Notes: a model not told the origin generated them from the sequence alone. A stretch of DNA of 40,000 nucleotides from an uncultured Prolixibacteraceae bacterium (GCA_963783085.1 CAWAMJ010000012.1:100331-140330), one strand, 5' to 3'; shown: positions 15,289-40,000, counted from the first letter of the stretch. Program-made: numbers and translations.

Positions 15289-15466
15289 TACCACAAATTA
15301 TTGTATTCCGGAATTGAAACGAGCTATCCGTCTGGCGGTTTGAAACCATCCGGCGGGTTTTCGGCAGAATAATCGTTATCCGGATTCCTGAAAGAGATAT
15401 TGAGTCTGCCCAACAAGTGGGATTTACATTAATTCAGTAAAAACACACGTTGTTATATTAAAATAA

Positions 15467-16177
15467 TCATGGATTTATCGTTTCCATCAGTAGCGAAAAG
15501 TTGTCGTTGTAATGATGCCCACCCGGCAGCCGGAAAACTTTCAGGCTATTGTTTTCACTTAAGCTGTCTTTAAGCAGAAGGTTCTCGTTCTGTCCGAAAA
15601 TACAAGTCATCGGCAACCCATTTCTTTCAATCTCGCCGCCCACTTTGTATTTTCGTTGTGCATCATCGGCTGTGGCTAACAAATCGCTTAGATGTACCTC
15701 GAAATCGGTACTTGCAGAAGGTGATAACAAAGCAACTTTTTTTATTTTGTGTTGTAAATCGATGGTTAATAACCGGGGCAAAAAACTGGCCACATCGGCG
15801 CCAAAAGAATAACCTACCACAATTAACGAAGCTTTTCCCCAGTTTTTCATAAAATAGTTGGAAATCTTTTCAATGTCGCGGGCAAATATCTTGGGTGATT
15901 TTCCTTTCCAGAAATATTTCCGGCTGTTCAGCGAAACCACACCGTAACCTTTCTTTTCAAATTCTTCTTTTAACTTTTGGCTGAATGCGTTCCACCCTCC
16001 GTCGCCGGTGAGGTATAAAATCAAATCACTCCGGCTTCCTTTTACTGCAGATGTTTCAAGCGGCAAATCTCCCAGCGCCGGAATTCCCTGTGCCGTTGTC
16101 AGGTTACTGCTCATACAAATAACGGTCAATAAAACCAGCCAATAAACAACAATCTTTCTCCTCTCCATCTTCATTTC
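15467..16177 (-). CDS. VirJ/AcvB-like alpha/beta hydrolase-family secreted protein
   Basis: LYLTGDGGWNAF...GYSFGADV resembles the VirJ domain. The listed start is TTG; ATG at 16177 or 16171 (MKMERRK) precedes the signal peptide. Confidence 0.5.
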   Translation of the reverse strand, partial: EMKMERRKIVVYWLVLLTVICMSSNLTTAQGIPALGDLPLETSAVKGSRSDLILYLTGDGGWNAFSQKLKEEFEKKGYGVVSLNSRKYFWKGKSPKIFARDIEKISNYFMKNWGKASLIVVGYSFGADVASFLPRLLTIDLQHKIKKVALLSPSASTDFEVHLSDLLATADDAQRKYKVGGEIERNGLPMTCIFGQNENLLLKDSLSENNSLKVFRLPGGHHYNDNFSLLMETINP

Positions 16178-25629: not shown

Positions 25630-26898
25630 TCATTCTTTTCCCATTTGTGAACCAATAAAAGGTATTTTCGGAGCTAAAAAATAGCCCGTCAGACTTGCAA
25701 ATAAAATTGGTATAAAATGTCCGAAACCTGTCAAGGTAGCAAGTAAAATTGTTGTACTCATTGGTGTTCGGGTTACACAAGTGTTAGTTGCAGCCATACA
25801 GCTAACTATCGCCAAAGTCAAATTTATTGTCGGGAATAGTTGATGGATAATTAATCCTAATGTTGCACCTACGAAAAATAGTGGAATAATAAACCCACCT
25901 CTCCAACCGGATGTTACGGTTATTGAAATGGCGATTATTTTAAAAACTAAAATCGCAAACAATAAAATCAATGGGAAATTTCCAGAGAGTAGTACGTTAA
26001 TTTCGTGATGCCCAAAGTATCGGGTTATTGGAAAGTAAAACGCTATTACACCAAGTAGTATACCACCAATTAGCGTTTTGATATAAATGGGTATCGGTCT
26101 TTTCTCGAAAATTGATTTAAAAAATTTGGTGCAAAAAATAAAAGCCCAACCAAAAGCTGCACCGATGATTGCAAAAAGAACTGCGTATCCGAAATCAAAA
26201 ATCCCTGAATATTCGTAAGCAGACAAATCCCAAATAGGACCAAGTCCTAAATGAATGATTAAAGCAAACACCAAATAACTAAAGCAACTTGCAACAAATG
26301 CAGGGATTATGGCTTTGTAGTATTCAACTGCGTGTTTATGGTGAAGTATTTCCAGGGAAAATAAACTACCCCCTAAAGGCGCGCCAAATAATGCAGTAAA
26401 ACCTGAAGCCATTCCTGCGATACTTAATGATCGTAATTCTTCTCCTTTAAGCCGGAACAATTTTCCTATCCAAGTTCCTGTTGAGCCTGTCACTTGAACC
26501 AATGGTGCTTCGGGCCCGAGACTACCACCTGACGCAACACATAACAAAGAAGAGAGAACCATTGACGGATTGTTTTTGGGGTCAAGTTTGCCCTTGTTAA
26601 ACCGAATGTTGTTTACAATTAAATTTATTTCCCCTGGGTCTCCAATGAAGTGAATTATCAGGCCTGCTAAAAGTCCGCAAATTGCCATCACAGGAATTAC
26701 TTGCCAACCATTAAAAAAGGCTAATTGGTGTGTCAAAAACTCAAGTCCAATCCAATATACTCCTGCTATTATTCCACCTGCTAATCCCAGAAGCGCCCAT
26801 AACATAAAAGTCCGATTGAAAACGAACGGGTTGAATCGCACAGGTTGGTCTAAAATGTTTAAATACGTTACTAATTTTCTTCTTCGTTTTAACTTCAC
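25630..26898 (-). CDS. ClC family chloride channel / H+-anion antiporter-like protein
   Basis: GGSLGPEAPLVQV (GxEGP-type), GAPLGGSLFSLE and GGFIIPLFFVGA motifs. The listed start is GTG and overlaps the stop of the upstream gene remnant. ATG at 26805 is an alternative. Confidence 0.75.
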   Translation of the reverse strand: MKLKRRRKLVTYLNILDQPVRFNPFVFNRTFMLWALLGLAGGIIAGVYWIGLEFLTHQLAFFNGWQVIPVMAICGLLAGLIIHFIGDPGEINLIVNNIRFNKGKLDPKNNPSMVLSSLLCVASGGSLGPEAPLVQVTGSTGTWIGKLFRLKGEELRSLSIAGMASGFTALFGAPLGGSLFSLEILHHKHAVEYYKAIIPAFVASCFSYLVFALIIHLGLGPIWDLSAYEYSGIFDFGYAVLFAIIGAAFGWAFIFCTKFFKSIFEKRPIPIYIKTLIGGILLGVIAFYFPITRYFGHHEINVLLSGNFPLILLFAILVFKIIAISITVTSGWRGGFIIPLFFVGATLGLIIHQLFPTINLTLAIVSCMAATNTCVTRTPMSTTILLATLTGFGHFIPILFASLTGYFLAPKIPFIGSQMGKE

Positions 26899-27050
26899 TG
26901 TTTCGTTTCTACGAGGTCAACCTTAATTTTTAATTCATTTTCCAACAATTCCTGAAGGTCAACAAACTCCCAGCCTAAAGGTTTCTTAAATGATAATAAA
27001 ATGTCAACATCGGAATTTTCGTTTTATTCGTTGGCGTCGTAGTTTAATCT
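26895..27050 (-). pseudogene. remnant of an MNT-type nucleotidyltransferase (antitoxin-like)
   Basis: My minus-strand translation gives ...NYDANE*NENSDVDILLSFKKPLGWEFVDLQELLENELKIKVDLVETKQ*. It has an in-frame TAA (27026-27024) and no N-terminal half. Confidence 0.55.
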
Positions 27051-27060
27051 TGGTTATAGT

Positions 27061-27360
27061 TTAGTTTATTGTTAATCCTAATTTTTTTCCTAATCCCTCC
27101 TCGAAAATCTTAAACAGAGTAGAAATCTGAATATCAATTTTTCCATTTTCCAGTCGCGAGATATAACTTTTTTTAGTCCCTGTTTTTTTTGCCAGGTCTT
27201 CTTGGGTGAGATGAGCCTTTTTTCTTTCTTCTTTTATCATTTCTCCAACAATAAAAGCTTTTGCTTTCATTTCAAATTCATCACGTTTTTCTGTTCCTAG
27301 TTTTCCGTATTTGATGTCTAATAATTCATCAAAATTTGTTGCATCTTTTATTGTTTTCAT
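27061..27360 (-). CDS. XRE-family HTH antitoxin (HigA-like)
   Basis: 99 aa with HTH LTQEDLAKKTGTKKSYISRLENGK. A 4-nt ATGA overlap couples it to the upstream toxin gene. Confidence 0.8.
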   Translation of the reverse strand: MKTIKDATNFDELLDIKYGKLGTEKRDEFEMKAKAFIVGEMIKEERKKAHLTQEDLAKKTGTKKSYISRLENGKIDIQISTLFKIFEEGLGKKLGLTIN

Positions 27361-27704
27361 TTTCCTTCTCCTTTTTTGTTTTTGAAATAATCCTCTTTTA
27401 TTTTTAATGCTTTTTCAATTTCTTTCTTTGGTGTTTTCTGACTTTTTTTCTGAAATCCATTGAATAAAACAACAATGCGACCAGCGTCAAAACAACAAAA
27501 TACCCGATAAATGTCAGAACCAACTTTTATCCTTATTTCATAAAGTCCAACCGTACTTTCAACATTTTTTAAGAATTTCTGAGGAATTAAATCCACAGTT
27601 TTAATTACCTTAAAAACATACTCTATTTTTTCTTGTACTGATGAATCAAGTGAAATATAGTAATCAATAAAATAGTTTTTATAAAATTTTATCTCTCGGG
27701 TCAT
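27357..27704 (-). CDS. RelE/ParE-superfamily toxin (HigB/Gp49-like)
   Basis: 115 aa. Toxin-first order with a coupled XRE antitoxin. The LYEIRIKVGSDIYRVFCCFD pattern is typical of the Gp49/HigB group. Confidence 0.7.
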   Translation of the reverse strand: MTREIKFYKNYFIDYYISLDSSVQEKIEYVFKVIKTVDLIPQKFLKNVESTVGLYEIRIKVGSDIYRVFCCFDAGRIVVLFNGFQKKSQKTPKKEIEKALKIKEDYFKNKKGEGK

Positions 27705-27779
27705 TTTGCAAAGTTAACAAGTTTGTAAACATTTCGACGTGCAAAATCAAAATATTATTGAAGATTTTTCTGACTAATG

Positions 27780-27953
27780 TTAAAAATTGTAATTGATGAA
27801 TGAAAGCAGGTTGCTCCTTTGGCAACAATATTTTCGTAGTTTCTCGGTTGTTTCATCGGGTAAAAAGCTGCTTGTCAATAAACCTAAAGCATGTAGTTTA
27901 TGTATATGCCTGCAGTCTGTTACATCAGTCTTTTTCCTTTTTGCATGTAGTTC
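27780..27953 (-). pseudogene. IS110-family transposase fragment
   Basis: KKTDVTDCRHIHKLHALGLLTSSFLPDETTEKLRKYCCQRSNL matches the KTDxxDA...GLLxxxFVP...LRxLxRxR segment of DEDD transposases. Both ends of the gene are missing. Confidence 0.6.
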
Positions 27954-28015
27954 AACACACCCTCTAATGTAAAGCATATGCAAGCAATGCTTTATTAGAG
28001 GCTAGTTGTTAGCAA
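27950..28015 (-). other. short attC-like site (66 nt)
   Basis: Minus strand reads TTGCTAAC-AACTAG-CCTCTAAT(A)AAGCA-loop-TGCTTT(AC)ATTAGAGG-GTGT-GTTGAAC. It has R''/R'-like boxes, unpaired spacers and a bulged stem. It starts 11 nt after the stop at 28027. Confidence 0.55.
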
Positions 28016-28026
28016 TAGTTTTTGAA

Positions 28027-28947
28027 CTATTTTGATTGAAATTTTATATTAAATTTTGCAAGATATTCTGCCAAAGGTTCCAATCCAAGTTCTCTTCTCC
28101 ATGTATCAACTTTTGTTTCATCTTCAAGTGGGTAAAGTTCTTCAGAATTCGTAGACTGATTGAATCTTGTATGTGTACCATATTTCTGCGGTTTATTTTC
28201 GTTAACAAGACAGCGGTCATATATATTGGCATATCTCTGCCAGCTAAGTTCATTTTCTTCACATCGTTGCTTTATTGTCGGTAAATATTTCTTCTGACTT
28301 CCATCATTTGAATGTATAGCTACAAGGTATGCCCCCATTGCTGCTTCACTTCCTACGTCTTTGATTTTAGGCCACCCTTTCAAAACAATAAGTTCTTCAA
28401 GCGCTTTCTGACTATTTTTCTGAATCATAAATTTAGAATTCCATAATGCTTCAACAACAGAAGATTTCATTCCAATTTTTCTACCGGCAATACCTATTTC
28501 TTTAAAATAAGCCTGGTCCAAAGCTCGCAACCTCCAAAGTGATTTTGCATATTCAAGATCTAAATATGGCCTTTTAAATTTTATATTCAGCATTGAAATT
28601 AGGTGGTTTTCAAAGTCTTGCCAATGCCTATCTTCTCTTATTGTTAAAAAATCTGGATCAATTAATGAAGCGATTGACGTATCCATTTCGACTGCAATAT
28701 ATAAGTATTTAAAAGCACTGTCAATTTGCTTATTGATAGAGAGAGCACACGCATAATTATAAACATTAGGTTGATTCTTTGGATTTTGAGAATAAACCTT
28801 CTTATATTCCGCAAGTGCCCCAGGTGTATCTCCCTCATCTCTCAAACTATCAGCCGTACTTCTAATATTTTGAATAACTGGCTGTGAAATAGCAATTTCA
28901 CTAAATACAATGAGACAACCGATTAGTGACAATCTAATAGTATTCAT
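28027..28947 (-). CDS. secreted TPR-like / DUF6624-like protein
   Basis: Signal peptide. The C-terminal pattern LKGWPKIKDVGSEAAMGAYLVAIHS...KYGTHT resembles DUF6624. Weak assignment. Confidence 0.4.
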   Translation of the reverse strand: MNTIRLSLIGCLIVFSEIAISQPVIQNIRSTADSLRDEGDTPGALAEYKKVYSQNPKNQPNVYNYACALSINKQIDSAFKYLYIAVEMDTSIASLIDPDFLTIREDRHWQDFENHLISMLNIKFKRPYLDLEYAKSLWRLRALDQAYFKEIGIAGRKIGMKSSVVEALWNSKFMIQKNSQKALEELIVLKGWPKIKDVGSEAAMGAYLVAIHSNDGSQKKYLPTIKQRCEENELSWQRYANIYDRCLVNENKPQKYGTHTRFNQSTNSEELYPLEDETKVDTWRRELGLEPLAEYLAKFNIKFQSK

Positions 28948-29031
28948 TTTCTATGATGTATTTATTAAAATCATGCGATAACGGTTCAGTAGTCGAGTAG
29001 GCAAAGGGAGTTTCACCCTAAGCCTCTCACA

Positions 29032-29065
29032 GAACCGTGCTTGATAGTCTCCCATCACACGGCTC
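29032..29065 (-). ncRNA. group II intron domain V
   Basis: GAGCCGUGUGAUGGGAGACUAUCAAGCACGGUUC: 34 nt, AGC catalytic triad, 2-nt AA bulge, GAGA (GNRA) tetraloop, fully paired lower and upper stems. Confidence 0.9.
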
Positions 29066-29108
29066 TTGCCTGCCTGGTCGGCAGACAGGTTATACAAATC
29101 TAAACGCT

Positions 29109-30362
29109 TCATTTAAATAAACCAATTTGCCAATGGTAAAATAATGTAGGAAATTGAAACTGCACTTTTTCTAACCATATATAGGCACGGTTTACACTGG
29201 TTTTGTAGCGTTTGTACCTTCTCCTTGCCCAGCGTATTAATCGCTTTCGCAGTAGCTGAAAGATTGGATTCAGTTCGTGTTTCCTGAACTTACCGAAGTA
29301 GTTAACCCACCCTCGTATAAAAGGGTTTAAAAATTGGGCAACGCCTACAATACTTTTGTAAGTCAGTCCAACAATGTCCAATTCCTCCATCTTGTCTGCA
29401 ATACGTTTCTTCGAACTAATACTGATGGCACAATCGTAACCCAAGAACAGTTTCCCTGTCTTTGGCGATTTGGTTGTGCGCGGCTGAAACGAATACCCAA
29501 GAAAATCGAACTTAACGGTCGGATAATTGCTTTGACGTCTATAATCTCGGCAATACACCAGTTTAGTCTTTTCAGGGTGCAATTCCAACCCACAATCAGC
29601 CATACGTCCACGTATTTTTACCAACAACCACTCTGCATGGGCTTTGCTCTTACAGTGAAGTATCGCATCATCTGCGTAACGTTCAAAACTCACTGTTTTG
29701 TGCTTCAGTTCAAGCCATTTGTCCATGGCATAATGAAGAAACAGGTTTGCCAGCAACGGGCTTATCACCCCACCCTGCGGTGTGCCTTTCCCCTGCTTTT
29801 GAACCAGTTCGCCTGATTTCTTTTGCACGGGTGCATTTAACCACCGTTTGATGTAAAATAAACACCAGTTTTCCGAAACATGTTTCTCTACTGCAAGCAT
29901 CAGTTTTCCGTGGTCTATATTATCAAAGAAACCTTTAATGTCGAGGTCGATTACCCAGTCTGTTTTCCTGCAATTATTCCGAACCGATTCGAGTGCCTGA
30001 TGGGCATCCTTGTTCGGACGGTAACCATAGGAGTTTGAACTGAATATCTTTTCAAACCTCGGTTCTAAGTAATCTTTAATAACCATTTGCCCTATCCTGT
30101 CGGCGATGGTTGGAATCCCAAGTTTTCGGGTTTTACCATCTTTCTTGGCTATCTCAACTTCTTTAACAGGTGGCGGAAAATAGCTGCCCGATGCCATGCG
30201 GTTCCAAAGTTTGTACAAGTGTTTTGACCTGTCTGCATCGAATTCTTCCATGCTGATTTCGTCAATGCCTGCACTCCCTTTATTGGCTTTCACTTTCTTG
30301 TAAGCCGCCCATACCATTTCGCGGCTTACAGGTACTGATTTTGTCTCATTCCATAAATTCAT
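29109..30362 (-). CDS. group II intron reverse transcriptase/maturase
   Basis: 417 aa with RT motifs (GIPTIADRIGQ, TPQGGVISPLLANLFL, YADDAILHC) and a maturase X region (RGWVNYFG). No C-terminal HNH/En domain. Confidence 0.92.
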   Translation of the reverse strand: MNLWNETKSVPVSREMVWAAYKKVKANKGSAGIDEISMEEFDADRSKHLYKLWNRMASGSYFPPPVKEVEIAKKDGKTRKLGIPTIADRIGQMVIKDYLEPRFEKIFSSNSYGYRPNKDAHQALESVRNNCRKTDWVIDLDIKGFFDNIDHGKLMLAVEKHVSENWCLFYIKRWLNAPVQKKSGELVQKQGKGTPQGGVISPLLANLFLHYAMDKWLELKHKTVSFERYADDAILHCKSKAHAEWLLVKIRGRMADCGLELHPEKTKLVYCRDYRRQSNYPTVKFDFLGYSFQPRTTKSPKTGKLFLGYDCAISISSKKRIADKMEELDIVGLTYKSIVGVAQFLNPFIRGWVNYFGKFRKHELNPIFQLLRKRLIRWARRRYKRYKTSVNRAYIWLEKVQFQFPTLFYHWQIGLFK

Positions 30363-31063
30363 CCTCTTACCAGAGTTGTTAAATGTTATGATACTGTATA
30401 ACCTAACCCCTTTGCTCCATCTCGATTACCGAGACTTCATCACTACTACGGGTTAGTCCGTCTCCCGACATTTCGTCGGGATTCCCGAGTTCCGTAATTA
30501 AACCTGGATAAAGTTCATGCCGCCTGAATGACGCCAGCCGAATGGATAGTAAACAGGTAACTTCCAAACTTAATGTTGTTTACAACACTATTTTTCACTC
30601 CGTCACATACTTCGTAGCTTTTGACTGGATGTGGCCACTTCTCGACACCTCTTCAGCGGTTACGGTTAGTTCATCTCCTTTATCCATACCTGATAACCTC
30701 GTGGGCTACCTTTTCCTAAACGCTCAATACCATGCCTCTTAAACACAGCACCTTTAGGTGGTTTAAAACCCTTGCCTGTACAACGGTCTTAGTGGGTCGG
30801 TTCCACCATCTTAACTACAGCATGCAAAGAACTAAAACTGCCGATTCTTTGCTTCTCGGCACACCAAGTGGAGTGCGGGATTTTGAAACGGTTTCCTGTC
30901 AAACCTGCACGGAGCCAAGCCGGCTTTTTATTAAACATCATTTTTAAACCGTAATCCGTCAAAGACGGATTGGCGGTGGTTGAACAGGGCGAAAAACGCT
31001 GGAACACCACGCCCGCCCGCATTACATTTGCACTTTGTTATAGCCAGTGTTTTATTCTCTTAT

Positions 31064-31591
31064 TCAATTATCTTCCAGGTAATCAGCATAAAAATCAAAG
31101 TAAACTTGAGTAATATAATCGTGAAATCCCCAACCAATATCACTTGTGTCTGTCATTACTTTTTCGGCTCTGTTTGCAAATTTTTCCAGTAGTCCATTTT
31201 TACTCATCAAAGTCAAAGCTTGTACGTAAGTCTTTTCCAGACTTGAATAAAAACTTTCGTTTATATCTCCAAAATCATTCGTAAATTCAACTCCAGTTTC
31301 CACATAAAAAAGCATTAAGTCAGCAAGATTTTCATCGGATACTCCAAGTTTTTTAAAATCGCTTATAGCTTTCTTCCCTTCTTTCAAATTATAGCCAAAT
31401 CCTCTCTTAGGAAAGAAGGTTTCGAATACTTTCTCACGATATTTTGATAATAGCTCTTTTTCGTTTGGATTTACATAAAAATCAAAGAACTCTTTAACTG
31501 ATTTATTCTTATTATATAATTCACCAATCAAATCAATTAGTTGACTTTTATTCAGATTTTTTAGGTTGTTTTTTACTTCTCGGATTCCCAT
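31064..31591 (-). CDS. hypothetical protein (175 aa, acidic, helical)
   Basis: Clean ORF with an ATG start. It is the last gene of the HicAB-containing block. I recognise no catalytic motif. Confidence 0.6.
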   Translation of the reverse strand: MGIREVKNNLKNLNKSQLIDLIGELYNKNKSVKEFFDFYVNPNEKELLSKYREKVFETFFPKRGFGYNLKEGKKAISDFKKLGVSDENLADLMLFYVETGVEFTNDFGDINESFYSSLEKTYVQALTLMSKNGLLEKFANRAEKVMTDTSDIGWGFHDYITQVYFDFYADYLEDN

Positions 31592-31641
31592 TGTCCTAAT
31601 TATTTCATCATTGGAGTTAACAATTAATATTGCCTGTGTTT

Positions 31642-32040
31642 TTAACTTTTATAAATCAGGTTCATTTCAGATAGTTCTTGTCCAATTTGATGAATTCCAC
31701 TCAATATTTTTTCAGTTTGGTTCTCAGACGGCTTTTTACGTCCTTGTACATATTGGGACAATAACGTTGGATTCATTCCAATTTTTTCTGCAAGAAATTT
31801 TGCATTGAGCACTTTATAATATTGAAAGAATTGCGCAAAGTCAATTTCAAATTTTAAGTTCTCATGCGTAATCTCAAATTCTTCTTCAAAGTTTAATTGA
31901 GTAGCTTCAAGTGCATTATTTATTAATTCAGGAATAGTTCTCCCGGTAGTAAATATTGGATATTCTTCTGAATATGCTGAAAAACCAGTCTTTGTTTTTT
32001 CAACTATTATTTTAATTTTTTTCTTTAATGTTTTCATCAT
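31642..32040 (-). CDS. hicB: HicB-family antitoxin with C-terminal HTH
   Basis: N-terminal IVEKTKTGFSAYSEEYPIFTTGRTIPEL (HicB fold) plus C-terminal FLAEKIGMNPTLLSQYVQGRKKPS (HTH). Lies 8 nt downstream of hicA. Confidence 0.75.
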   Translation of the reverse strand: MMKTLKKKIKIIVEKTKTGFSAYSEEYPIFTTGRTIPELINNALEATQLNFEEEFEITHENLKFEIDFAQFFQYYKVLNAKFLAEKIGMNPTLLSQYVQGRKKPSENQTEKILSGIHQIGQELSEMNLIYKS

Positions 32041-32048
32041 TCTTGTTT

Positions 32049-32237
32049 TTAAATTGTAATTCCTGCATCTCTCAAAATTTTCTTCTCAAGTCCTTTACCG
32101 ACTTCTTGACTTCCATGGTTTGGAAAAATTATTATTCCTTCTTTTTGGTCATGTTTCAATTTAACATGTGACCCTTTTTGAGAAATTGGATACCACCCAT
32201 GTTTTTTCAAGAGTTGGAATAATTCGGAACATTTCAT
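32049..32237 (-). CDS. hicA: HicA-family mRNA interferase toxin
   Basis: 62 aa; LLKKHGWYPISQKGSHVKLKH...IIIFPNHGSQEVGKGLEKKILRDAGI matches the HicA/YcfA pattern. Confidence 0.85.
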   Translation of the reverse strand: MKCSELFQLLKKHGWYPISQKGSHVKLKHDQKEGIIIFPNHGSQEVGKGLEKKILRDAGITI

Positions 32238-32542
32238 TTAAATAAATCTTTCTAAATTGTATTCAAAGGTAAATAATAATTTACTTTTTACAATAAAATA
32301 ATTGCAGGAATTTACTTTTTTTCAACATTGGCTATAACGGTACGTATAAGTTTTGTTGGGGATTCCGAAGCACTTATCTTTCAAAATACAACGAACTTGA
32401 ATAGAAGTAATGCCTTTAAAATTGGCACTTTCACCCCAATAAAATTTATACGATGTTGAACTTAACCTCACTGGCGTTCGGTGGTTTTTAATTCACCGAA
32501 CGTCAGTATCTTTGAGGTATTGTTTCATTTAAAATTCATATT

Positions 32543-33407
32543 ATGACAAATTTAAAAAAAATTCGAACAGGAATCTGTTCTGCGGAACTTAAGTGAAAGG
32601 ACCAGGAAAAGTTACTGGTGGCACATAGTTGACTACAGCAAATTTTGCAAAAAAGACCCTGGGCAAACAGGAGTGCAAGAGCTGAGGGCTTATTTCCAGT
32701 CGATGCTCACCGACGGTAACCACAAACCGGGAAGTGTAAAAATGGGATATTTTGCCCTTCGTTTCCTGTTTACCAACATTTACCACAAAGAATGGGCAAA
32801 ACAATACCTTCCAACGCCAAAAGTTGCCAAAACACTTCCGCTGGTTTTGTCGAAAGACGAAGTAACCGATGTACTTGGGGCCATTGACAACTTCAAGCAC
32901 CGCACCATCATTATGCTTATTTATTCCACCGGGGCCAGGGTATCGGAAAGTGTGAACATCAAACTGACCGATATCGACAGCCGGCGGATGCAGGTCAACA
33001 TCCAGGAAGGGAAAGGTCTGAAGCAACGGAAAGTTCCGCTCTCGCCTGCACTGCTCTCTGTATTGCGAAAATATTACCGGCAGTACAAACCAGGGCATTA
33101 CCTTTTCGAAGGCGCCGGGGGAAAAGGCACACACCTGGGCATTACTGCTGTACGGACTATTTGCACTAATGCACGGCACCGCACGCTACACATTAAAAAG
33201 CCCTACACACCGCACACTTTTCGCCACAGTTTTGCCACACACCACCTCGAACAGGGCACCAGCCTGTTGGTCATACAGCGTTTGTTGGGACATTCCGATT
33301 TAAGCAATACCCTAAAATACCTGCATGTGCAGCAACTCAACACCGGCCAGGTGGTAAACCCGCTGGATACGCTGGAAGGATTGGAGGGGCTATGCAACAT
33401 CAAATAA
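32543..33407 (+). CDS. tyrosine recombinase/integrase of the IS91-type unit; N-terminus out of frame at an A8 run
   Basis: Box I TGARVSE and box II HTFRHSFATH...LLGHS...TLKYLH. ATG 32543 (MTNLKK) is in a different frame from the main ORF. The homologous N-terminal sequence (FEQESVLRNLSERTRKSY...) is open in the main frame only from 32556. Confidence 0.7.
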
Positions 33408-34600
33408 GCCTTGAGAATATCCTGAACGAATATGGCGAAGGCTATATCAGCCGGAACCGGGTTTCAGGACAGGAAAAAGGGTTGGTGCGCCTGTTATCAG
33501 CGTGCCGCACAGCAGGCCTTGGCAGCCATTTTGAAAAATGCGACCATTGCAGCCATACCGAAAAATCCTATAATTCCTGTCGCAACCGCCACTGCCCTGC
33601 GTGCCAGCAAAAAGACAAACTGGAGTGGATGGACAAACGTATGAAAGAACTCCTGCCGGTGGGATATTACCACCTGGTGTTTACCCTGCCTCACGAATTA
33701 AACCTGCTTTGCCTTCAAAATAAAAAGGTGATGTACGGCCTGCTTTTTAAAACTGTATCGCAAACCCTGCTGGAACTTGCCCGCGACCCCAAACACCTGG
33801 GGGCAGATATTGGGTTAATTACTGTCTTGCACACGTGGGGACAAAACATGAAAGAACACCCCCACCTACACTGCATTATGCCGGCAGGCGGGCTCAGCTT
33901 TGACCGTAACCACTGGGTACATATTCCCAATAAAAACAATTTCTTTATTGCCGGGAAAGTGCTGTCCAAAAAGTTCAGGGGCAAGTTTTTGCATCTGCTA
34001 AAGCAGTCGAAGGTAAACGGGGAACTTGTTTTTCACGGAAAACTGGCAGACATAAAAGGGCCGGTGCAGTTTGACCGGTTCCTTACGCCTCTGTACCAAA
34101 AGCAATGGGTAGTGAATGTGCAGAAACCCATGGGCAACCCCGAAAAGATACTGGAATACCTCTCGCGTTATGTGTTCCGCATTGCCATTACCGGCCGGCG
34201 TATCCTGGAAGTGAAAGACGGGAAGGTACTCTTTTCGTGGAAAGACTACCGCACCAACCGTTTCCGCAAAATGTGGCTCGATACCGATGAGTTTATCCGC
34301 CGGTTCCTGTCGCATGTATTGCCAAAGGGGTTCTTTAAGGTGCGGTATTTCGGTATTTTTTCCAGCCGTTACCGGAAACAAAATATTGAAACTGCCCGGA
34401 AGCTCCTGGCTGAAGAGACTGAAACCAAAAAAGAAGAGGCTTTGGAAGATGGCCGCCGGATTTGGGAAAAACAGGATACGGTGTGGAATGAAATCCTTGA
34501 ACTTATTAAAAACCACCGCCAGCCCAACTGCCCGGCATGTAAAAAAGGAAGGTTACGCTTTGCCGGATTGGTAAAGGATGTACCATTGGAACCAGGTTAA
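33392..34600 (+). CDS. IS91-family (HUH, Y2) rolling-circle transposase
   Basis: Zn-binding CDHCSH...SCRNRHCPACQ, then LLPVGYYHLVFTLP, HUH-like HPHLHCIMP, and the tyrosine region LEYLSRYVFRIAI. Confidence 0.88.
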   Translation: MQHQISLENILNEYGEGYISRNRVSGQEKGLVRLLSACRTAGLGSHFEKCDHCSHTEKSYNSCRNRHCPACQQKDKLEWMDKRMKELLPVGYYHLVFTLPHELNLLCLQNKKVMYGLLFKTVSQTLLELARDPKHLGADIGLITVLHTWGQNMKEHPHLHCIMPAGGLSFDRNHWVHIPNKNNFFIAGKVLSKKFRGKFLHLLKQSKVNGELVFHGKLADIKGPVQFDRFLTPLYQKQWVVNVQKPMGNPEKILEYLSRYVFRIAITGRRILEVKDGKVLFSWKDYRTNRFRKMWLDTDEFIRRFLSHVLPKGFFKVRYFGIFSSRYRKQNIETARKLLAEETETKKEEALEDGRRIWEKQDTVWNEILELIKNHRQPNCPACKKGRLRFAGLVKDVPLEPG

Positions 34601-34975
34601 TCACAGGGCAACAAAACGTTCTTTGAACCTTTTTTAAATCCAGGTTAACAGCTAAAAATTCCCTGTTTTGGCTGAACGGGAAAAATATGCAGGCAAACGA
34701 ACAAAAATTTTACCTCAATAACCCGGGTTCACGCCAAACAGGCAAACCGGTAAAAACAACAGATGAAAAATACCGGAAAGAAAACAAGAAAAACATTCAA
34801 TCCCCATAGCCGGAACAATTAATAATCAGCGGCTAAGCCCAACACGAATTAAAACACAATTGGGCTTGGCATTTTGAAAGCAGTTACCCCCGAAAGAAGG
34901 CAGCAGGTTTGCATACTTACTGCCTTTTTTCGGGGCCCAACTGTGCCTTAATTCCTAATTTGTTAGCGATAGTTT

Positions 34976-37606
34976 TTATTGAACAACAATTTTTCTGTTA
35001 AATGTTCTCTTTCCATCAAATAATTTGACCAAATAAACCCCGGCAGGTAATCGCCCCAAATCGAAACTACTGATATCTGCTAAAATGTTATTTTCATAAA
35101 CTTTCTCTCCGTAAGAGTTATAAATGTTTAAAACATAGTTTGTATTCGTATCTTTAAGAAGCTCAATATGCAGGATATCCTTAACTGGATTTGGATAGAT
35201 ACGAATATCGATATTTTGAGAAATGTTTGATGCTATGCCTGTCGTTAAACTATCTACAAGGTAAAAATACCCCGAAGTATCAGCAGCATTGCTATTTAAA
35301 TCTTTAATTAGTATTTGACAGCTATCCTTAGCAGAAATGTATTGAAAAACATCCCAGGTAAATGATTTCTGTTCTGCAGGATAATCATAAGATAAGGTGT
35401 GCCAGTAGTAATTCTTCGATGTTTTATAAGAAATCGAAACATTATTGGCATAGGAGGAAATCCATTTGATTTCGGTACTTCCTTTATAGGAAACTTCTTG
35501 ATTTGGGACAGGACTGACAATTTCTAAATAAGGCAAAATATTTATAACGATAGAATCTGCACTTTCATTTATTTCGCTGTCGTAAACCTTAATCCAATAA
35601 ACTCCCGGTTTTACAACAGGCAGACACCAATTAAAAGAATCTGATTCATCCTCTATATTTTCTATTATTACATTCCAGTTATATTCATTCTGAGGTCTGT
35701 AACTAAGAGTAAATGCGTCAGAATAAAGGTTCTCCCATTTTAAAGTCAAGGTATCACCGGGCATCACTTCGGTGCCCGAAACCGGAGTAATAATTTTAGT
35801 TGATGGAATGAGCGAAATCGATAATGTATCACTTAAACCATACCGGGCATCTGATATCCGGATTAACATTTTAGTTGGCTGAATATCGGGAGTAGTCCAA
35901 CTGAGTTGCTTTTCACTTGCCGTAACCGAATCCTGTACTGTGTTCCATTTTTCTTCACTGGTAATTTTATATTCCAATTTCACGTAATCAATAAATGCCT
36001 CATCCCAAATAACCTGATTTACTTTACCTGCCTGCCATTTTAGACCTTCCATTGCCGGGTTGAATGCCAAATAAGGAACAGCTTCAAATTCCTTCTCTCC
36101 ACTAAATTTAGAACCGGTATAAGCCTGGTCGATTGTTTGTACTGCCCATCTGTAAACTCCGGCAGAATCTAAATGAATTTTCCACCCCTGATTTTTTTGG
36201 ACGTTACCCAAAAATGGCAATCTTAATACCCCGGATGAATGATCGGACATGGAATTCAAAATTGTATCGCCCCCAACCCGGTATAAATAACAATTATAAT
36301 AAAGCCCATCACTTGCAGATTCATTATCCGAACCTTCATTCCAAAACAGATAGACAGTGTTACTATAAACAGAATCCTTTAAAGTTTTTGGGGGATCAGG
36401 CATGGTATTGGATTTGAAACCTTTATTGACATAAACTTCTGTTTCTGCGATTCCAGATCGGTTAAAACCTGTAGAAACGACGTCCAATTTGCCATCATTG
36501 TTGTAATCGAAAAATGCTACGGTGCCTTGGATGTCAGCAAAAGATACTCTTTCCTGTTGAGTAAATTCAGCATTTCCATTATTGTTGAAAAGATAAGTTT
36601 CATAGTATATCTTAAAAATTAAATCAAGGTCTCCATCATTGTCATAGTCACCCCAGTCATGGTGCATAATATTAACGGGCAGACCTGCTATTTTACTTTT
36701 AGTGTAATTGTCATTGCCATCATTCAACAGAATTAGTCCTCCTGAAAAAATATCAACGTCTCCATCGTTATCAAAATCTCCCCATGAGCAATTTCTTTCT
36801 TCACTAAAAACACGATTTGAATAAAGTAGAAAATTACCATCGCCTGTATTTTCATACAATTCTCCTTTAAGCAAAATATCCATGTCATAATCCTTATCAA
36901 AGTCTACGAAAAATACATTCGTATAATAATCCCCCGACATTTCAAAGGAAGATAATTCGTTTAACGATTTGCCTTTATTATTTAGGAACAGGCAGGTTTT
37001 TTCTCCCTGTTCTGAGCTGCCTGAAACAATCAGATCGATATAACCATCATTATTATAATCCCCAAAATCAGCTTTACTGGCAAACATGGCCGTAAAGTTG
37101 GAAATACTATCTTCCTTAAATGTACCATCGCCCAGGTTCTTAAATAACTTCGATTGCTTATCTGATTCATAAGGTGCCTTGGCCCCCGAAATAAACACAT
37201 CCATATCTCCGTCGTTGTCGTAATCGGCCCATTTTATTTCCCCTCTGCTTAACTGAGGAAACACGTCATTATTCACTTCAAGTATATTGCCCGGATTATT
37301 TTGATAAAGCTTGGTGAATGAATAATCATCTTCACCTGACATCAGCATATCCATATCATTGTCATTGTCATAATCAGCCAATCCAATTGAACTGTATTTC
37401 AGTCCGATTAAATCAAGAGTTGTATCTTTTTGCAGGATAAATTCACCATACTGAGTGAATTCAATCAGGTAAGGAGAATTTGCAGCGTATCCTGTAGTTA
37501 AACGAATACGACCATTTCGTAACGCACCTCCATTCTTACTGAAATGAAGGATAATATTCGTACTGTCTCCTCCGGTTTCCGTGCTTACAGTATACCAATC
37601 ATCCAT
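34976..37606 (-). CDS. FG-GAP/VCBS-repeat protein with T9SS C-terminal sorting domain (3' part of a split gene)
   Basis: Many DYDNDGDMD-type repeats. The C-terminal IYPNPVKDILHIEL...GVYLVKLFDGKRTFNRKIVVQ is a type-A T9SS sorting domain. The frame stays open upstream of the listed Met to about 37888. Confidence 0.8.
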   Translation of the reverse strand: MDDWYTVSTETGGDSTNIILHFSKNGGALRNGRIRLTTGYAANSPYLIEFTQYGEFILQKDTTLDLIGLKYSSIGLADYDNDNDMDMLMSGEDDYSFTKLYQNNPGNILEVNNDVFPQLSRGEIKWADYDNDGDMDVFISGAKAPYESDKQSKLFKNLGDGTFKEDSISNFTAMFASKADFGDYNNDGYIDLIVSGSSEQGEKTCLFLNNKGKSLNELSSFEMSGDYYTNVFFVDFDKDYDMDILLKGELYENTGDGNFLLYSNRVFSEERNCSWGDFDNDGDVDIFSGGLILLNDGNDNYTKSKIAGLPVNIMHHDWGDYDNDGDLDLIFKIYYETYLFNNNGNAEFTQQERVSFADIQGTVAFFDYNNDGKLDVVSTGFNRSGIAETEVYVNKGFKSNTMPDPPKTLKDSVYSNTVYLFWNEGSDNESASDGLYYNCYLYRVGGDTILNSMSDHSSGVLRLPFLGNVQKNQGWKIHLDSAGVYRWAVQTIDQAYTGSKFSGEKEFEAVPYLAFNPAMEGLKWQAGKVNQVIWDEAFIDYVKLEYKITSEEKWNTVQDSVTASEKQLSWTTPDIQPTKMLIRISDARYGLSDTLSISLIPSTKIITPVSGTEVMPGDTLTLKWENLYSDAFTLSYRPQNEYNWNVIIENIEDESDSFNWCLPVVKPGVYWIKVYDSEINESADSIVINILPYLEIVSPVPNQEVSYKGSTEIKWISSYANNVSISYKTSKNYYWHTLSYDYPAEQKSFTWDVFQYISAKDSCQILIKDLNSNAADTSGYFYLVDSLTTGIASNISQNIDIRIYPNPVKDILHIELLKDTNTNYVLNIYNSYGEKVYENNILADISSFDLGRLPAGVYLVKLFDGKRTFNRKIVVQ

Positions 37607-37826
37607 GGCTTTTATTTCCGTAAGGTTCAGAAGACCCTTCCCGTTATTCTTAATCGTGAAGGTAAAACTTTCGTTATCCGTTGAAATTTCTGCAGGTTTT
37701 GGATAATGACTAATGATAGGAACTGAATCTCCTATATAAAATGAATGTACTTCGGAATAGGAAGAAGCGAGAAATCCATTGTCAACAGTTTTTACCTTCC
37801 AGTAATAATACCCCGGCTCCAGATTT

Positions 37827-39185
37827 TTAACCAGCAGGCAAGTGTCTTTTATATTGCGCCCAAGCTGATATGAGGCCGGGGAAACAAATTAAATTATCGT
37901 GTCCCCTTTTCAGTTCCAGTACATATCCCAACCCTTTTTCAGGTGTTTCAGCGTCATTGCCAGGCGACCAGTGCAATAATACACTGGTTGAGTCTGTATT
38001 AGCGCTCAGACTTTGAGGTTGTTCGGGGCTGGTGTTGCTTTTGGTAGTATTGTTCAGGTATATTTTAGTGACCCGATCACGATACCCTGAACTTAAAAGG
38101 TTTCCTTCCCCTGTAACAATAATATCTAAATCATGGTCATTATCAATATCTCCAAATTTGATTACGCCCCCTTCAACACCCTGAATATTTTCACCTGTTT
38201 CTTCAGTAAAACTAACACCACCATTATTTTTATAAAGCGTGGTCTCTATATCATTGATGCCTACACCCGTAACCATAAAATCCAGCCAACCGTCATTGTT
38301 GAAGTCTCCTAAATCGATGGCAGCACTCCCTAAACGGTATCCACTTACAATTGGTTGTTCGTCGAACTTTAAATTATTGTTTCTGTATATCGTTACAAAG
38401 TTTTGGTCCGTGCCACATAAAAAAATATCTAAATAGCCGTCATTGTCATAGTCCCCCCATTTAGCCATGCCATATCTTAAATTTTTCAGTGAACTTGAGG
38501 TGTCGGCTACGAAAACATTATTTCCCTGATTAATGTAAATTTTTGAAAATCCATAATCAGGCCATCCGTTGTCACCTGTAACAAGCAAATCTAAATCTCC
38601 ATCTTTATCAAAGTCTCCCCAATCTGCGGATCCATTTGTCAGCGATGGAACAGATGTCTCTATTCTGCAGAAGTTATTTCTGCCATTGCTTTCATATAAG
38701 CCAGCCGTGGTGCTAAAGAGGTCAATATCCCCATCATTATCATAATCGCCAATTTCAAAGCTGGTAAACTCAGCATAATTAAATGACATATAATTTTGCA
38801 CTTCAAATTCTCCATTACCATTATTTTTACTAAAATTTGGAAAAGGAAAAACAGTAGAGTTAGTCCTACCATCCATAACCAGATCTAAGTCTCCATCATT
38901 ATCATAATCGAGAAAATCGATTTTCCCGAATTCAAATGCCGGCAGGTTGGTATTTATAGTATCCTTCTCAAATACATTATTTCCTTTGTTAAGATAGATA
39001 ACAGTTGTTGTTAAACCATCTCCTGAAATCAAAATATCCAGTAAGCCATCATTATTGATATCTCCCAGCGAGCAACAGCTATATTTAACCTGTGCCAGTC
39101 CGGCATTCTCCAATTCCGTATATATTTGCGCCATTATATAGCTAGGTGCAAATAACAGTACGATTATTACTAATGTTTTATACAT
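37827..39185 (-). CDS. FG-GAP/VCBS-repeat protein with signal peptide (5' part of the same split gene)
   Basis: Signal peptide MYKTLVIIVLLFAPSYIMAQ, FG-GAP repeats (GDINNDGLLD, DYDNDGDLD...). It ends in an out-of-frame tail after ...GHDNLI. Confidence 0.8.
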   Translation of the reverse strand: MYKTLVIIVLLFAPSYIMAQIYTELENAGLAQVKYSCCSLGDINNDGLLDILISGDGLTTTVIYLNKGNNVFEKDTINTNLPAFEFGKIDFLDYDNDGDLDLVMDGRTNSTVFPFPNFSKNNGNGEFEVQNYMSFNYAEFTSFEIGDYDNDGDIDLFSTTAGLYESNGRNNFCRIETSVPSLTNGSADWGDFDKDGDLDLLVTGDNGWPDYGFSKIYINQGNNVFVADTSSSLKNLRYGMAKWGDYDNDGYLDIFLCGTDQNFVTIYRNNNLKFDEQPIVSGYRLGSAAIDLGDFNNDGWLDFMVTGVGINDIETTLYKNNGGVSFTEETGENIQGVEGGVIKFGDIDNDHDLDIIVTGEGNLLSSGYRDRVTKIYLNNTTKSNTSPEQPQSLSANTDSTSVLLHWSPGNDAETPEKGLGYVLELKRGHDNLICFPGLISAWAQYKRHLPAG

Positions 39186-39198
39186 GTTTTTTAAATTA

Positions 39199-39389
39199 TT
39201 GCTAACGGTTTGGCTATGTGGAGTGCGGGACTTTGAAACGCTTCACGGTCAGGCTGCCACTGAGCCAATTCGTTTATTCAAATTTTGTTTTTATAGCCAA
39301 ATCGTCAAAGACGAATTGGCGGTGTTGCAACGAAGCACAGCTGTTTGATTACGCACTGCACCCCGCATTACATATAGCTTTTGTTGTGC
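39199..39389 (-). other. large attC-like structured element (191 nt), uninterrupted copy
   Basis: R''-like GCACAAC (39389-39383) lies 13 nt after the stop at 39403. R'-like ACC-GTTAGCAA (39206-39199) lies 13 nt before the ATG at 39185. It shares conserved blocks with 30865-31045: ATGTAATGCGGG, CACCGCCAAT-CGTCTTTGACG, CGTTTCAAA-TCCCGCACTCCAC. Confidence 0.6.
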
Positions 39390-39402
39390 TTTCGTGCTTT
39401 TC

Positions 39403-40000
39403 TTATTTTACAGCATCAATCAATATTTGTGTCTTTGAGCCTTGTTTTACATGCTGCTTATCTTCTAGGTCAAAATCAGCTCCGTCCATGGCATTTGTAG
39501 CTTGTTGAAATAATGGTAAATATCTTGCTTCATCATTTAAAATATCAATTATTGGTTCACAGAATCTATTCATCAAACGTTCACTATTGAATGGAGGATT
39601 ATCTTGGGCGCTTACTAATATTCTGAACATGGTTAATAAATGAAACCTAACACGTTTGTATTTGGAGTCTATAATTCTTCTTCTGAAAAGAGATTCAAGT
39701 CTATAATATGCAAGGGCACTCGTATAGTAAGGAATAAAAGCATGGTCCTCATTGAAAATTTGTGAAGAATCAGAATTCAACCTTTTTACAATAGAACCAA
39801 AATAACTTGTGACCAAATGGGGATTTTGGAGAAACATTGCTGAAAAGGATTTAATCTGAATAGGAATACTGATTATACGAGTCTTAGTCACAGAACTATC
39901 AGTATTATATTGTTTTGACCTTCTTTCGTAATAAAGTGCTCCATCTCCATCAAAAGACTTATAATATTGCTCCAATCTCCTTTGGAAATCAGTAAGTGCA
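39403..40000 (-). CDS. AIPR-like abortive-infection protein, C-terminal part (5' end outside window)
   Basis: The frame is open to the window edge (...ALTDFQRRLEQYYKSF). LYYERRSKQY...RIISIPIQIKSFSAMFLQNPH resembles the AIPR C-terminal region. Assignment is from memory. Confidence 0.5.
   Translation of the reverse strand, partial: ALTDFQRRLEQYYKSFDGDGALYYERRSKQYNTDSSVTKTRIISIPIQIKSFSAMFLQNPHLVTSYFGSIVKRLNSDSSQIFNEDHAFIPYYTSALAYYRLESLFRRRIIDSKYKRVRFHLLTMFRILVSAQDNPPFNSERLMNRFCEPIIDILNDEARYLPLFQQATNAMDGADFDLEDKQHVKQGSKTQILIDAVK

Follow-up and report, generated by a model that had tools for sequence, protein, structure and literature searches.

An integron-like array of gene cassettes with attC-like hairpin sites in an uncultured Prolixibacteraceae bacterium

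Integrons are the classic gene-capture system, and their definition has been drawn, mainly from Proteobacteria, from one integrase signature and one site model. In the integrons studied, the strand that recombines is the 'bottom' strand of the attC site, strand choice is set by bulged extrahelical bases on the R''/L'' arm, and the upper limit of attC length is ~141 nucleotides (nt). The term CALIN (cluster of attC sites lacking integron integrases) refers to two or more attC sites spaced by less than 4 kb in a region from which an integron integrase is missing. Insertion sequences (IS) of the IS91 family have GTTC/CTTG targets and ori and ter ends, and some IS91 members in ISfinder, of the ISWz1 type, carry an integrase open reading frame (ORF); we know of no role established for these IS91-associated integrases. 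Such recombinases are the closest relatives of IntI and lack the IntI insertion (10.1101/542381). The usual homing sites of class C group II introns lie behind terminators, and the IIC-attC introns described so far target the bottom attC strand and hence run against the direction of the cassette genes (PMC3001079). Bacteroidota are among the phyla listed with integrons (PMC9668308, PMC8618304); in complete Bacteroidetes genomes, however, IntegronFinder 2.0 detected only In0 elements and one Salinibacter integron (PMC9024848). Here, we describe a 40,000-nt stretch of DNA from an uncultured Prolixibacteraceae bacterium (GCA_963783085.1 CAWAMJ010000012.1:100331-140330; hereafter, the window), in which the minus strand of the 26.9-40 kb region is an integron-like array of mobile gene cassettes split by folded recombination sites. 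Judged from its sequence, this region is probably the distal part of a chromosomal integron-type cassette array of a Prolixibacteraceae-like member of the Bacteroidota.

Read from right to left along the minus strand, the array carries an AIPR gene, a split FG-GAP/type IX secretion system (T9SS) gene, a HicA-HicB-DUF6155 operon, a DUF6624/TPR gene, a Gp49 toxin gene with its helix-turn-helix (HTH) antitoxin gene and a remnant of an MNT nucleotidyltransferase gene, beyond which lies a core ClC channel gene (Pfam annotation; the MNT remnant was recognized by eye). The minus strand of the region contains at least four attC-like sites, one of which is split by a group II intron, whereas another holds at its R'' box a unit composed of an integrase and an IS91-type transposase (Int-Y2). 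The R'' boxes are GCACAAC (39389-39383), TCGCTAAC (34969-34962), GGCTATAAC (31045-31037), TTGCTAAC (28015-28008) and CTATAAC (27059-27053), and the R' boxes are GTTAGCAA (39206-39199), GTTATAGCC (32338-32330), GTTATCGC (28982-28975) and GTTGAAC (27956-27950). An earlier note on this DNA, made from the sequence alone, had drawn attention to these nine boxes; on re-reading the sequence, all of them were found where it had placed them on the minus strand, and the distances from stop codon to R'' box and from R' box to start codon were also correct (13, 92 and 27 nt from the end of the GTT box to the next ATG). Taken as bare 7-mers, the boxes are not significant: the minus strand of the 13-kb array has 11 occurrences of RYYYAAC and 20 of GTTRRRY, compared with 22 of each in the 27-kb core region. 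They gain significance because they are parts of larger conserved sites. Comparison of the arms of three sites of the window (designated A, C and D) revealed a shared layout: R''..AAC is separated by 3 nt from a 16-18-nt L'' arm, and beyond the centre the complementary L' arm is separated by 4-7 nt from R' GTT... The two spacers are unpaired and asymmetric (3 versus ~6 nt).

To characterize these sites, we aligned 15 of them from metagenomes (alignment A3) and built a covariance model, R1, from the alignment. The AAC and GTT cores are conserved in 14-15 of the 15 sequences. RNAalifold predicts a 13-pair stem with compensatory changes in 11 pairs, and when the structure is extended to 21 pairs, made up of an 18-bp L stem and the three pairs of the AAC/GTT R box, both sides vary in 14 of them. 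The covariation score of A3 is 0.508, compared with 0.120 for shuffled alignments and at most 0.10 for controls slid by 1-3 columns; shuffles equalled the observed value in 0 of 500 cases for four of five measures and in 1 of 500 for further pair types. At two places in the stem (21/118 and 26/113), 14-15 of the 15 sites have no base pair but an invariant A.C mismatch on the gene strand. Since these correspond to G.T wobbles on the complement, the 'bottom' strand is expected to fold better and might form an uninterrupted helix. When run on the window, R1 matched at 32331-32464 (minus strand, 119 bits), 39199-39392 (minus strand, 52.9 bits) and 34834-34969 (plus strand, 29.3 bits), and found nothing with E<0.5 in the core genes of positions 1-26000. 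Altogether, R1 produced 76 matches in 23 sources. The arrays elsewhere have a single orientation and one ORF per site, with ~13 sites in locus L095, 11 each in L120 and L094, 8-10 in L123 and L129, and seven in L047. At the gathering threshold, no Rfam family matched the sites, the only models matched being the two of the intron described below. The centres of the sites span 30-120 nt. A typical site is ~130 nt long, with lengths reaching 190-200 nt in the window. Right before the L' arm, the centres keep the motif TTGA(C/A)AG(G)AAA ... (C)GCAAT(C)C (A3 columns ~82-106; window 32390-32362 and 39255-39228), which is common to contigs whose intron reverse transcriptases (RTs) are only ~75% identical and might serve in protein binding, as a promoter or in recognition by the intron. 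A ~50-nt site beside an Int-Y2 unit in L086 (2786-2870; TTAGTTCAACACACGCCTGTTCATTGGCTAGCTCGGTCGTTGGCGAT) consists of R'', a portion of L'', the 3' spacer and R' without a centre, and is thus either a minimal version of the site or one that has undergone deletion.

Hairpins located directly after stop codons might also be generic terminators or repetitive extragenic palindromic (REP)-like repeats whose box complementarity is coincidental, all the more so as terminators are the usual homing places of class C group II introns and bare boxes are frequent by chance. This explanation, which the earlier note had named among those that would overturn its proposal, makes a prediction different from that of cassette recombination. 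If a cassette is inserted as a circle by crossover at G|TT, its first bases should be the reverse complement of the R'' box that follows the gene of the same cassette, and not of the R'' box of the site which they adjoin. We compared the seven variable box bases across consecutive R1 matches. The R'' box and the R' box opening the same cassette agree on average at 4.63 of 7 bases (n=27), with at least 6/7 in 16 of the 27 pairs, ten of which are 7/7. By contrast, R'' and R' of the same site agree at 2.06 of 7 bases (n=34; maximum 4, none at 6 or more), and random R''/R' pairs at 2.18 (n=5000; 2% at 6 or more). Such an own-cassette match is impossible from terminators. In the window, the HicA-HicB-DUF6155 cassette, which starts with TTATAGCC and ends with its own R'' GGCTATAAC, matches at 7/7 variable bases (9/9 with the AAC/GTT core), and the FG-GAP cassette, which starts with TTAGCAA and has TCGCTAA as its own R'', at 6/7, so that the permutation is seen in two of four blocks, just as the earlier note had proposed; DUF6624 matches at 2/7 and the toxin-antitoxin block not at all. 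Locus L001 yielded own-box matches of 9/9, 7/7, 9/9 and 6/7.

Shared cassettes break at the GTT boxes, as the proposed G|TT crossover would have it. A cassette encoding a 337-aa protein is 99.7% identical between L123 and L124, although the surroundings differ; the identical stretch runs from C|GTTAGCGCC, upstream of the gene, to ..GGCGG-GTTGTG, the own R'' being GGCGCTAAC, and the ~130-nt site travels with the gene. Similarly, the FG-GAP cassettes of the window, L001 and L002 (the latter two are loci of related metagenome-assembled genomes (MAGs) retrieved by scanning genome contigs with the FG-GAP protein) have three unrelated upstream flanks, all joining at GTTAGCAA. Together, the own-box statistic and the GTT breakpoints exclude a generic terminator or REP family, which, considering also the lack of R1 matches in the 26 kb of core genes and the arrays that start at an integrase (see below), we regard as hardly tenable, and support G|TT crossover. 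Along with the covariation and the arrays elsewhere, they bear out the attC-like R''...R' cassette array suggested at the outset. A true REP-like family is present in L001 and is different from the sites. It has the form TAATC..ATCAGG..AATCAGGAAAATC, occurs at 9590-9750, 14270-14330, 14950-15070, 15400-15480 and 19170-19290 of L001 and at 4776-5330 of L002, is unrelated to the attC-like sites, and is found beside genes or fragments of IS200/RAYT-like transposases, at the edge of as well as inside cassette regions.

The individual sites of the window differ in length and state of preservation. The earlier note had put three of its four sites at 170-197 nt, without mention of the 1873-nt intron between the boxes at 31045 and 28982 or of the 2507-nt Int-Y2 unit between those at 34969 and 32338; once the insertions are removed, sites A, C, D and E measure 191, ~133, 198 and 66 nt, respectively. 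Site A consists of R'' GCACAAC, L'' GCTATATGTAATGCGG, L' CCGCACTCCACATAGC, the spacer CAAACC and R' GTTAGCAA. It is homologous to site D (75% identity over ~110 nt), and since it has no intron, site A corresponds to an empty intron target. A 190-nt repeat had been considered as the 5' part of the intron, but this was rejected, because the intron begins with GTGTGCC at 30864 and site A is the empty target. Site C reads ..GTTCAAC-ATC-GTATAAATTTTATTGGGG...CCCCAACAAAACTTATAC-GTACC-GTTATAGCC and is complete rather than a fragment, its R'' position now being filled by the ..GTTCAAC end of the Int-Y2 unit. If the R' that opens the cassette of site D (TTATAGCC from 32337) is used to close this site, both strands fold over its whole length. 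For site A as placed in the array, the minimum free energy fold comprises three local hairpins and no end-to-end fold, the latter requiring closure by the own-cassette R', as in site D. Site E (28015-27950) folds into a 15-bp stem with a 2-nt bulge on the L' arm; short sites of comparable length (65-70 nt) are also present in other arrays. The flank and R'' behind the DUF6624 gene (AAAACTATTGCTAACAA, 28024-28008) are identical at 16 of 17 positions to the flank of the FG-GAP gene (34978-34962). They are also complementary at 10/10 bases to the R' opening the FG-GAP cassette (GTTAGCAATA, 39206-39197) and mismatched to the start of their own cassette. This pattern points to an earlier rearrangement in which sites were involved with each other.

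A tyrosine recombinase of ~545 aa is encoded immediately before the array, and in the direction of the cassettes, in three related contigs. This integrase was found by walking one related contig upstream and not by phmmer. The order in that of L129 is core genes, a toxin-antitoxin pair, the co-oriented 546-aa integrase, 129 nt, ..CCACTC-G|TTGCAAGC and the first cassette, which has its own R'' GCTTGCAAC and an R1 site and is followed by at least 10 more cassettes. The same layout was observed for a homologue with 62% identity in L130/L131, where the sites score 89.6 and 77.3 bits, and for one with 54% identity in L132, a GenBank Bacteroidetes MAG with own-box matches of 9/9 and 8/8; the L132 sites are too divergent for R1 despite these matches. 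An attI-like G|TT junction lies beside the integrase in L129, L131 and L132, whereas the window ends before the start of its own array. The catalytic half of the 546-aa integrase has TIGR02249 as its best NCBIfam model (211.9 bits), and the best sequence match in PDB is IntI4 (2a3v, 153.8 bits), aligned over IntI4 residues 16-182 and 245-318. Consistently, a Foldseek search of PDB with the structural model of the integrase returned 2a3v_B as the best hit (E=1e-17), only the catalytic half being matched. The N-terminal ~270 residues (L129 3889-4700) are predicted to form three tandem beta-beta-alpha-beta-beta-alpha modules of ~60 aa each with a W..K.W.IP motif (mean predicted local distance difference test score of the model, 76.8), and one of the modules matches the Pfam HARP domain with 31 bits. 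To our knowledge, no other tyrosine recombinase has such an N-terminus. The family is large, with 4801 database proteins at E<=1e-30, and those of its members that are named come from Bacteroidota or Bacteroidales. Based on these data, the 545-aa integrase is most likely the enzyme acting on the arrays.

Several observations weigh against assigning the locus to the integron type. Neither an array integrase nor a gene for a ~545-aa integrase was found among the annotated and searched proteins of the window, and the link between the window and this enzyme therefore rests on the relatives. The 546-aa integrase scores below the NCBIfam integron cutoff (211.9 versus 265 bits) and lacks the IntI-specific insertion, the helical additional domain within the catalytic domain, having 19 residues in place of the 62 of IntI4. 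The A3 sites are devoid of bulged extrahelical bases, with L'' and L' arms of equal length; site E is not significant in R1 (11.5 bits, E=0.9); and the own-box match fails in two of the four cassettes of the window, DUF6624 and toxin-antitoxin. Accordingly, the integron identity put forward in the earlier note holds for the array, the sites and the permutation, but not for the IntI insertion, missing from the integrase of the relatives, nor for the extrahelical bases. An alternative would be an ordinary integron, either a sedentary chromosomal one or a CALIN, with ordinary attC sites of the kind that IntegronFinder calls and a canonical IntI, including the additional domain, elsewhere on the chromosome. 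Integron rules agree with the cargo, the permutation and the G|TT junctions as well as with the L stem and the R''/R' boxes, and, as mentioned above, Bacteroidota are listed with integrons. We nevertheless consider this account unlikely: the recombinase at the start of the array has no IntI insertion in three independent related contigs, a phmmer search with the integrase of the window against six-frame ORFs of 126 loci (1.2 Mb) found no other tyrosine recombinase, the sites are without extrahelical bulges, and the survey of complete Bacteroidetes genomes cited above was nearly empty. An integron-type array served by a differently built integrase is in better agreement with the data. As regards the spacing that defines a CALIN, four sites of the family lie within 10.4 kb with no IntI nearby, gaps above 4 kb being found only across the FG-GAP genes.

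Although no integron integrase is in view, as the earlier note had correctly stated, an integron-like recombinase is encoded inside the array, within the Int-Y2 unit. The unit is inserted in reverse at the R'' box of the FG-GAP site, with crossovers at G32455|T32456 and G34962|T34963, that is, at G|TT of the complement of the FG-GAP R''. It is 76% identical at the nucleotide level to a 2513-bp repeat whose copies in L123 and L124 are 99.5% identical. Ends mapped in four copies begin with TTGAAC and finish with ..AATTTG beside variable GTT boxes of attC-like sites, and appear to fit G|TT crossover better than IS91 ends. Comparison of the copies overturned the notion that site C was cut mid-way by an IS91 element with the 34.9-kb hairpin as its end: the unit sits exactly at R'', and the hairpin at 34.8-34.97 kb is its own site. 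One copy (L124/L125) directly abuts the 3' end of an intron (..CCTACTCGA|TTGAAC). The Int gene of the window starts with ATG at 32543 and is frameshifted by a run of eight A's (32554-32561), where seven would restore a protein of ~290 aa. Because many database homologues are likewise called short at the N-terminus (234-244 aa), the frameshift is either recurrent, possibly programmed, or a common homopolymer error. The homologues are mostly found on contigs of 1-3 kb, as expected for a repeat.

Could the Int-Y2 units, rather than a fixed platform integrase, move the cassettes, with Int recombining the hairpins and the HUH transposase perhaps supplying single-stranded circles? The units have G|TT bounds and their own site, they are multi-copy (up to 3-4 copies per 17-25 kb of array) and nearly identical, and in 8/8 loci (the window, L085, L086, L123-125, L127 and L128) they were found only inside arrays, always opposite to the cassettes; furthermore, the IS91-associated recombinases are those closest to IntI. 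However, the arrays begin at the 545-aa integrase in 3/3 contexts, long array stretches (L095 and L120) have no Int-Y2, the copy of the window is frameshifted, and reverse entry at R'' is a polarity unlike that of ordinary cassettes, which makes this scenario decidedly improbable. The G|TT bounds, the own site and the reversed insertion identify Int-Y2 as a reversed cassette-like element and not as the platform of the array, which is more plausibly the 545-aa integrase.

The intron that splits site D starts with GTGTGCC at 30864, ends with CTCGAC at 28992, 9 nt upstream of GTT, and belongs to the endonuclease-less class C-like group II introns. Its RT/maturase ORF (30362-29109, 417 aa) contains only the RVT_1 and GIIM domains (TIGR04416, 407 bits). 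A metagenome scan with this RT retrieved 80 loci with 74-91% aa identity, and both in the window and in the loci oriented by their RT, the intron is co-oriented with the cassette genes. Among ~70 copies examined, nearly all 3' exons consist of N6-10 followed by GTTRRRY, the last exon bases usually being CATA. Joining of the exons rebuilds empty sites of ~125-135 nt, or of ~190 nt in a subfamily that includes sites A and D of the window. A second type of group II intron (RT of 421 aa) is present in several copies per array in L124/L125 (e.g. L124 8647-9912, 13696-14961 and 17934-19199); these introns lie on the strand opposite to the cassettes, the orientation of IIC-attC introns such as S.ma.I2. 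The coordinates of all features of the window are collected in Table 1.

Table 1. Features of the cassette array in the window, with the evidence for each
Feature	Coordinates	Strand	Evidence
AIPR (abortive-infection-like) gene, 3' part	39403..40000	-	PF10592, E 6e-7, profile positions 132-277 only
attC-like site A, long subtype, 191 nt	39199..39389	-	R1 52.9 bits, E 6e-10
FG-GAP/T9SS cassette	34963..39205	-	Pfam FG-GAP_3 and Por_Secre_tail
Int-Y2 unit, 2507 nt, at R'' box of the FG-GAP attC, reversed	32456..34962	+	Copy comparison, Pfam/NCBIfam
Own attC-like site of the Int-Y2 unit	34834-34969	+	R1 29.3 bits, E 4e-5
Y2 HUH transposase gene of the unit, with N-terminal zinc-binding domain; overlaps Int	33392-34600	+	PF04986 and PF14319; NF033538 411.8 bits (cutoff 125)
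Int gene of the unit, Xer/IntI-like tyrosine recombinase	32543-33407	+	TIGR02249 145 bits (cutoff 265); without IntI insertion region
Site C, body of the attC of the FG-GAP cassette, ~133 nt	32330..32464	-	R1 119.1 bits, E 5e-27, full length
HicA-HicB-DUF6155 cassette, including attC D and intron	28982..32337	-	Pfam HicA_toxin, HTH_3, DUF6155
attC-like site D, long subtype, 198 nt without intron	31045-30865 + 28991-28975	-	Homology to site A
Endonuclease-less group II intron (class C-like), 1873 nt	28992..30864	-	RF01999 102 bits, RF00029 65 bits
DUF6624/TPR cassette (gene 28947-28027, short hairpin site E at 28015-27950)	27956..28981	-	Pfam DUF6624
Gp49/HigB-like toxin (27704-27357) and HTH antitoxin (27360-27061) block	27053..27955	-	Pfam Gp49, HTH_3
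MNT nucleotidyltransferase remnant, ending ...SDVDILLSFKKPLGWEFVDLQELLENELKIKVDLVETKQ and stop	26895..27040	-	By-eye reading of the sequence

The cargo, with its two toxin-antitoxin pairs, the AIPR gene and the MNT remnant, is of the kind usual in sedentary integrons, and the region has a low GC content (0.30-0.36). The AIPR gene is the cargo of the most upstream visible cassette; it runs off the edge of the window, with no in-frame stop up to base 40000. The FG-GAP gene is broken into two ORFs (39185-37827, 452 aa, and 37606-34976, 876 aa) separated by a gap at 37607-37826, whereas the orthologues in L001 (1389 aa) and L002 (1402 aa) are unbroken, consisting of one ORF each; the split reflects either a real disruption or an assembly error. 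The three genes of the HicA-HicB-DUF6155 cassette lie at 32237-32049, 32040-31642 and 31591-31064. Behind the Gp49 toxin-antitoxin block, the CTATAAC box has no partner, as previously noted, and the block has neither an R1 match nor an own-box match. Because of this partnerless box, the block probably represents the last cassette of the array in a decayed state. Next to it, the distally placed MNT remnant overlaps the predicted GTG start (26898) of the core ClC channel gene (26898-25630, Voltage_CLC, PF00654); therefore, the array meets core DNA without a spacer.

A possible mode of operation of the system can be outlined as follows. A cassette opens with TTRRRY.., carries one gene or a small operon and closes with an attC-like site whose last base is G. 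Its circularization and integration would occur through crossover by a tyrosine recombinase at G|TT, on sites folded from single strands. The recombinase would be the ~545-aa integrase, whose gene immediately precedes the first cassette in the same orientation and at which, by analogy with the three related contigs, the array of the window might also start. The N-terminal HARP-like modules may replace the missing IntI insertion in reading structured DNA, while the G.T/A.C asymmetry would favour folding of the strand complementary to the genes, presumably the recombining one. The intron, on the other hand, would use the hairpin of the gene strand, homing to the L' arm 9 nt before GTT, and the Int-Y2 unit, bounded like a cassette, would enter the R'' box backwards, with a possible contribution of its Y2 transposase.

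We did not find a description of the present combination of integrase and sites in the literature. We tentatively propose that Bacteroidota might hold a widespread, so far undescribed integron-like class, in which a relative of IntI that lost or never had the insertion would read bulge-free sites with the aid of its three HARP-like modules, accompanied by self-mobilizing Int-Y2 cassettes that invade R'' boxes in reverse and by a dedicated lineage of gene-strand introns. If so, the integron mechanism would run with a differently built integrase and bulge-free sites in a phylum that is nearly empty in complete-genome surveys, which would raise the question of how strand and site are chosen without the IntI insertion or extrahelical bases. 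Standard integron definitions would probably miss such an integrase and such sites, and standard finders that require the C-terminal signature of IntI would miss the platform; surveys based on MAGs may already be scoring some of these arrays as CALINs. IS91-associated integrases would gain a concrete substrate, and large pools of unannotated cassettes, rich in defence and toxin-antitoxin genes, would be added to those known.

Three described systems can be compared with the locus. Like the IIC-attC introns of the S.ma.I2 lineage, the intron of the window has an endonuclease-less RT/maturase and homes to integron-type hairpin sites rather than to genes; in contrast to them, its lineage is co-oriented with the genes and enters the L' arm 6-10 nt upstream of R'. 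The Int-Y2 unit shares with the IS91 elements that have an upstream tyrosine recombinase (ISWz1-type) the overlapping ORFs for the integrase and the Y2/Zn-finger transposase, its integrase belonging to the integron-like subgroup without the insertion, but differs from the IS91 family in that its ends are G|TT junctions in attC-like sites, it has its own attC-like site, and it behaves as a reversed cassette. The array as a whole is closest to sedentary integrons and CALINs, exemplified by the Vibrio superintegron with its Vibrio cholerae repeats (VCRs). In both cases, arrays consist of co-oriented, mostly single-gene cassettes; the sites have the form R''(..AAC)...R'(GTT..), with an L stem, unpaired spacers, G|TT crossover and complementarity within the own cassette; and the sites are homogeneous within a lineage, the cargo is rich in toxin-antitoxin and defence genes, and, in the relatives of the window, an attI-like junction lies beside the integrase. 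The differences are that the integrase of these relatives has no IntI insertion, carries ~270 extra N-terminal residues and is co-oriented with the cassettes, and that the sites are bulge-free, with two invariant A.C/G.T positions instead, and typically ~130 nt long, at most 190-200 nt here. Thus, while the IntI insertion and the extrahelical bases, two defining features of integrons, were looked for and found absent, the system appears to work, in functional terms, like a sedentary chromosomal integron.

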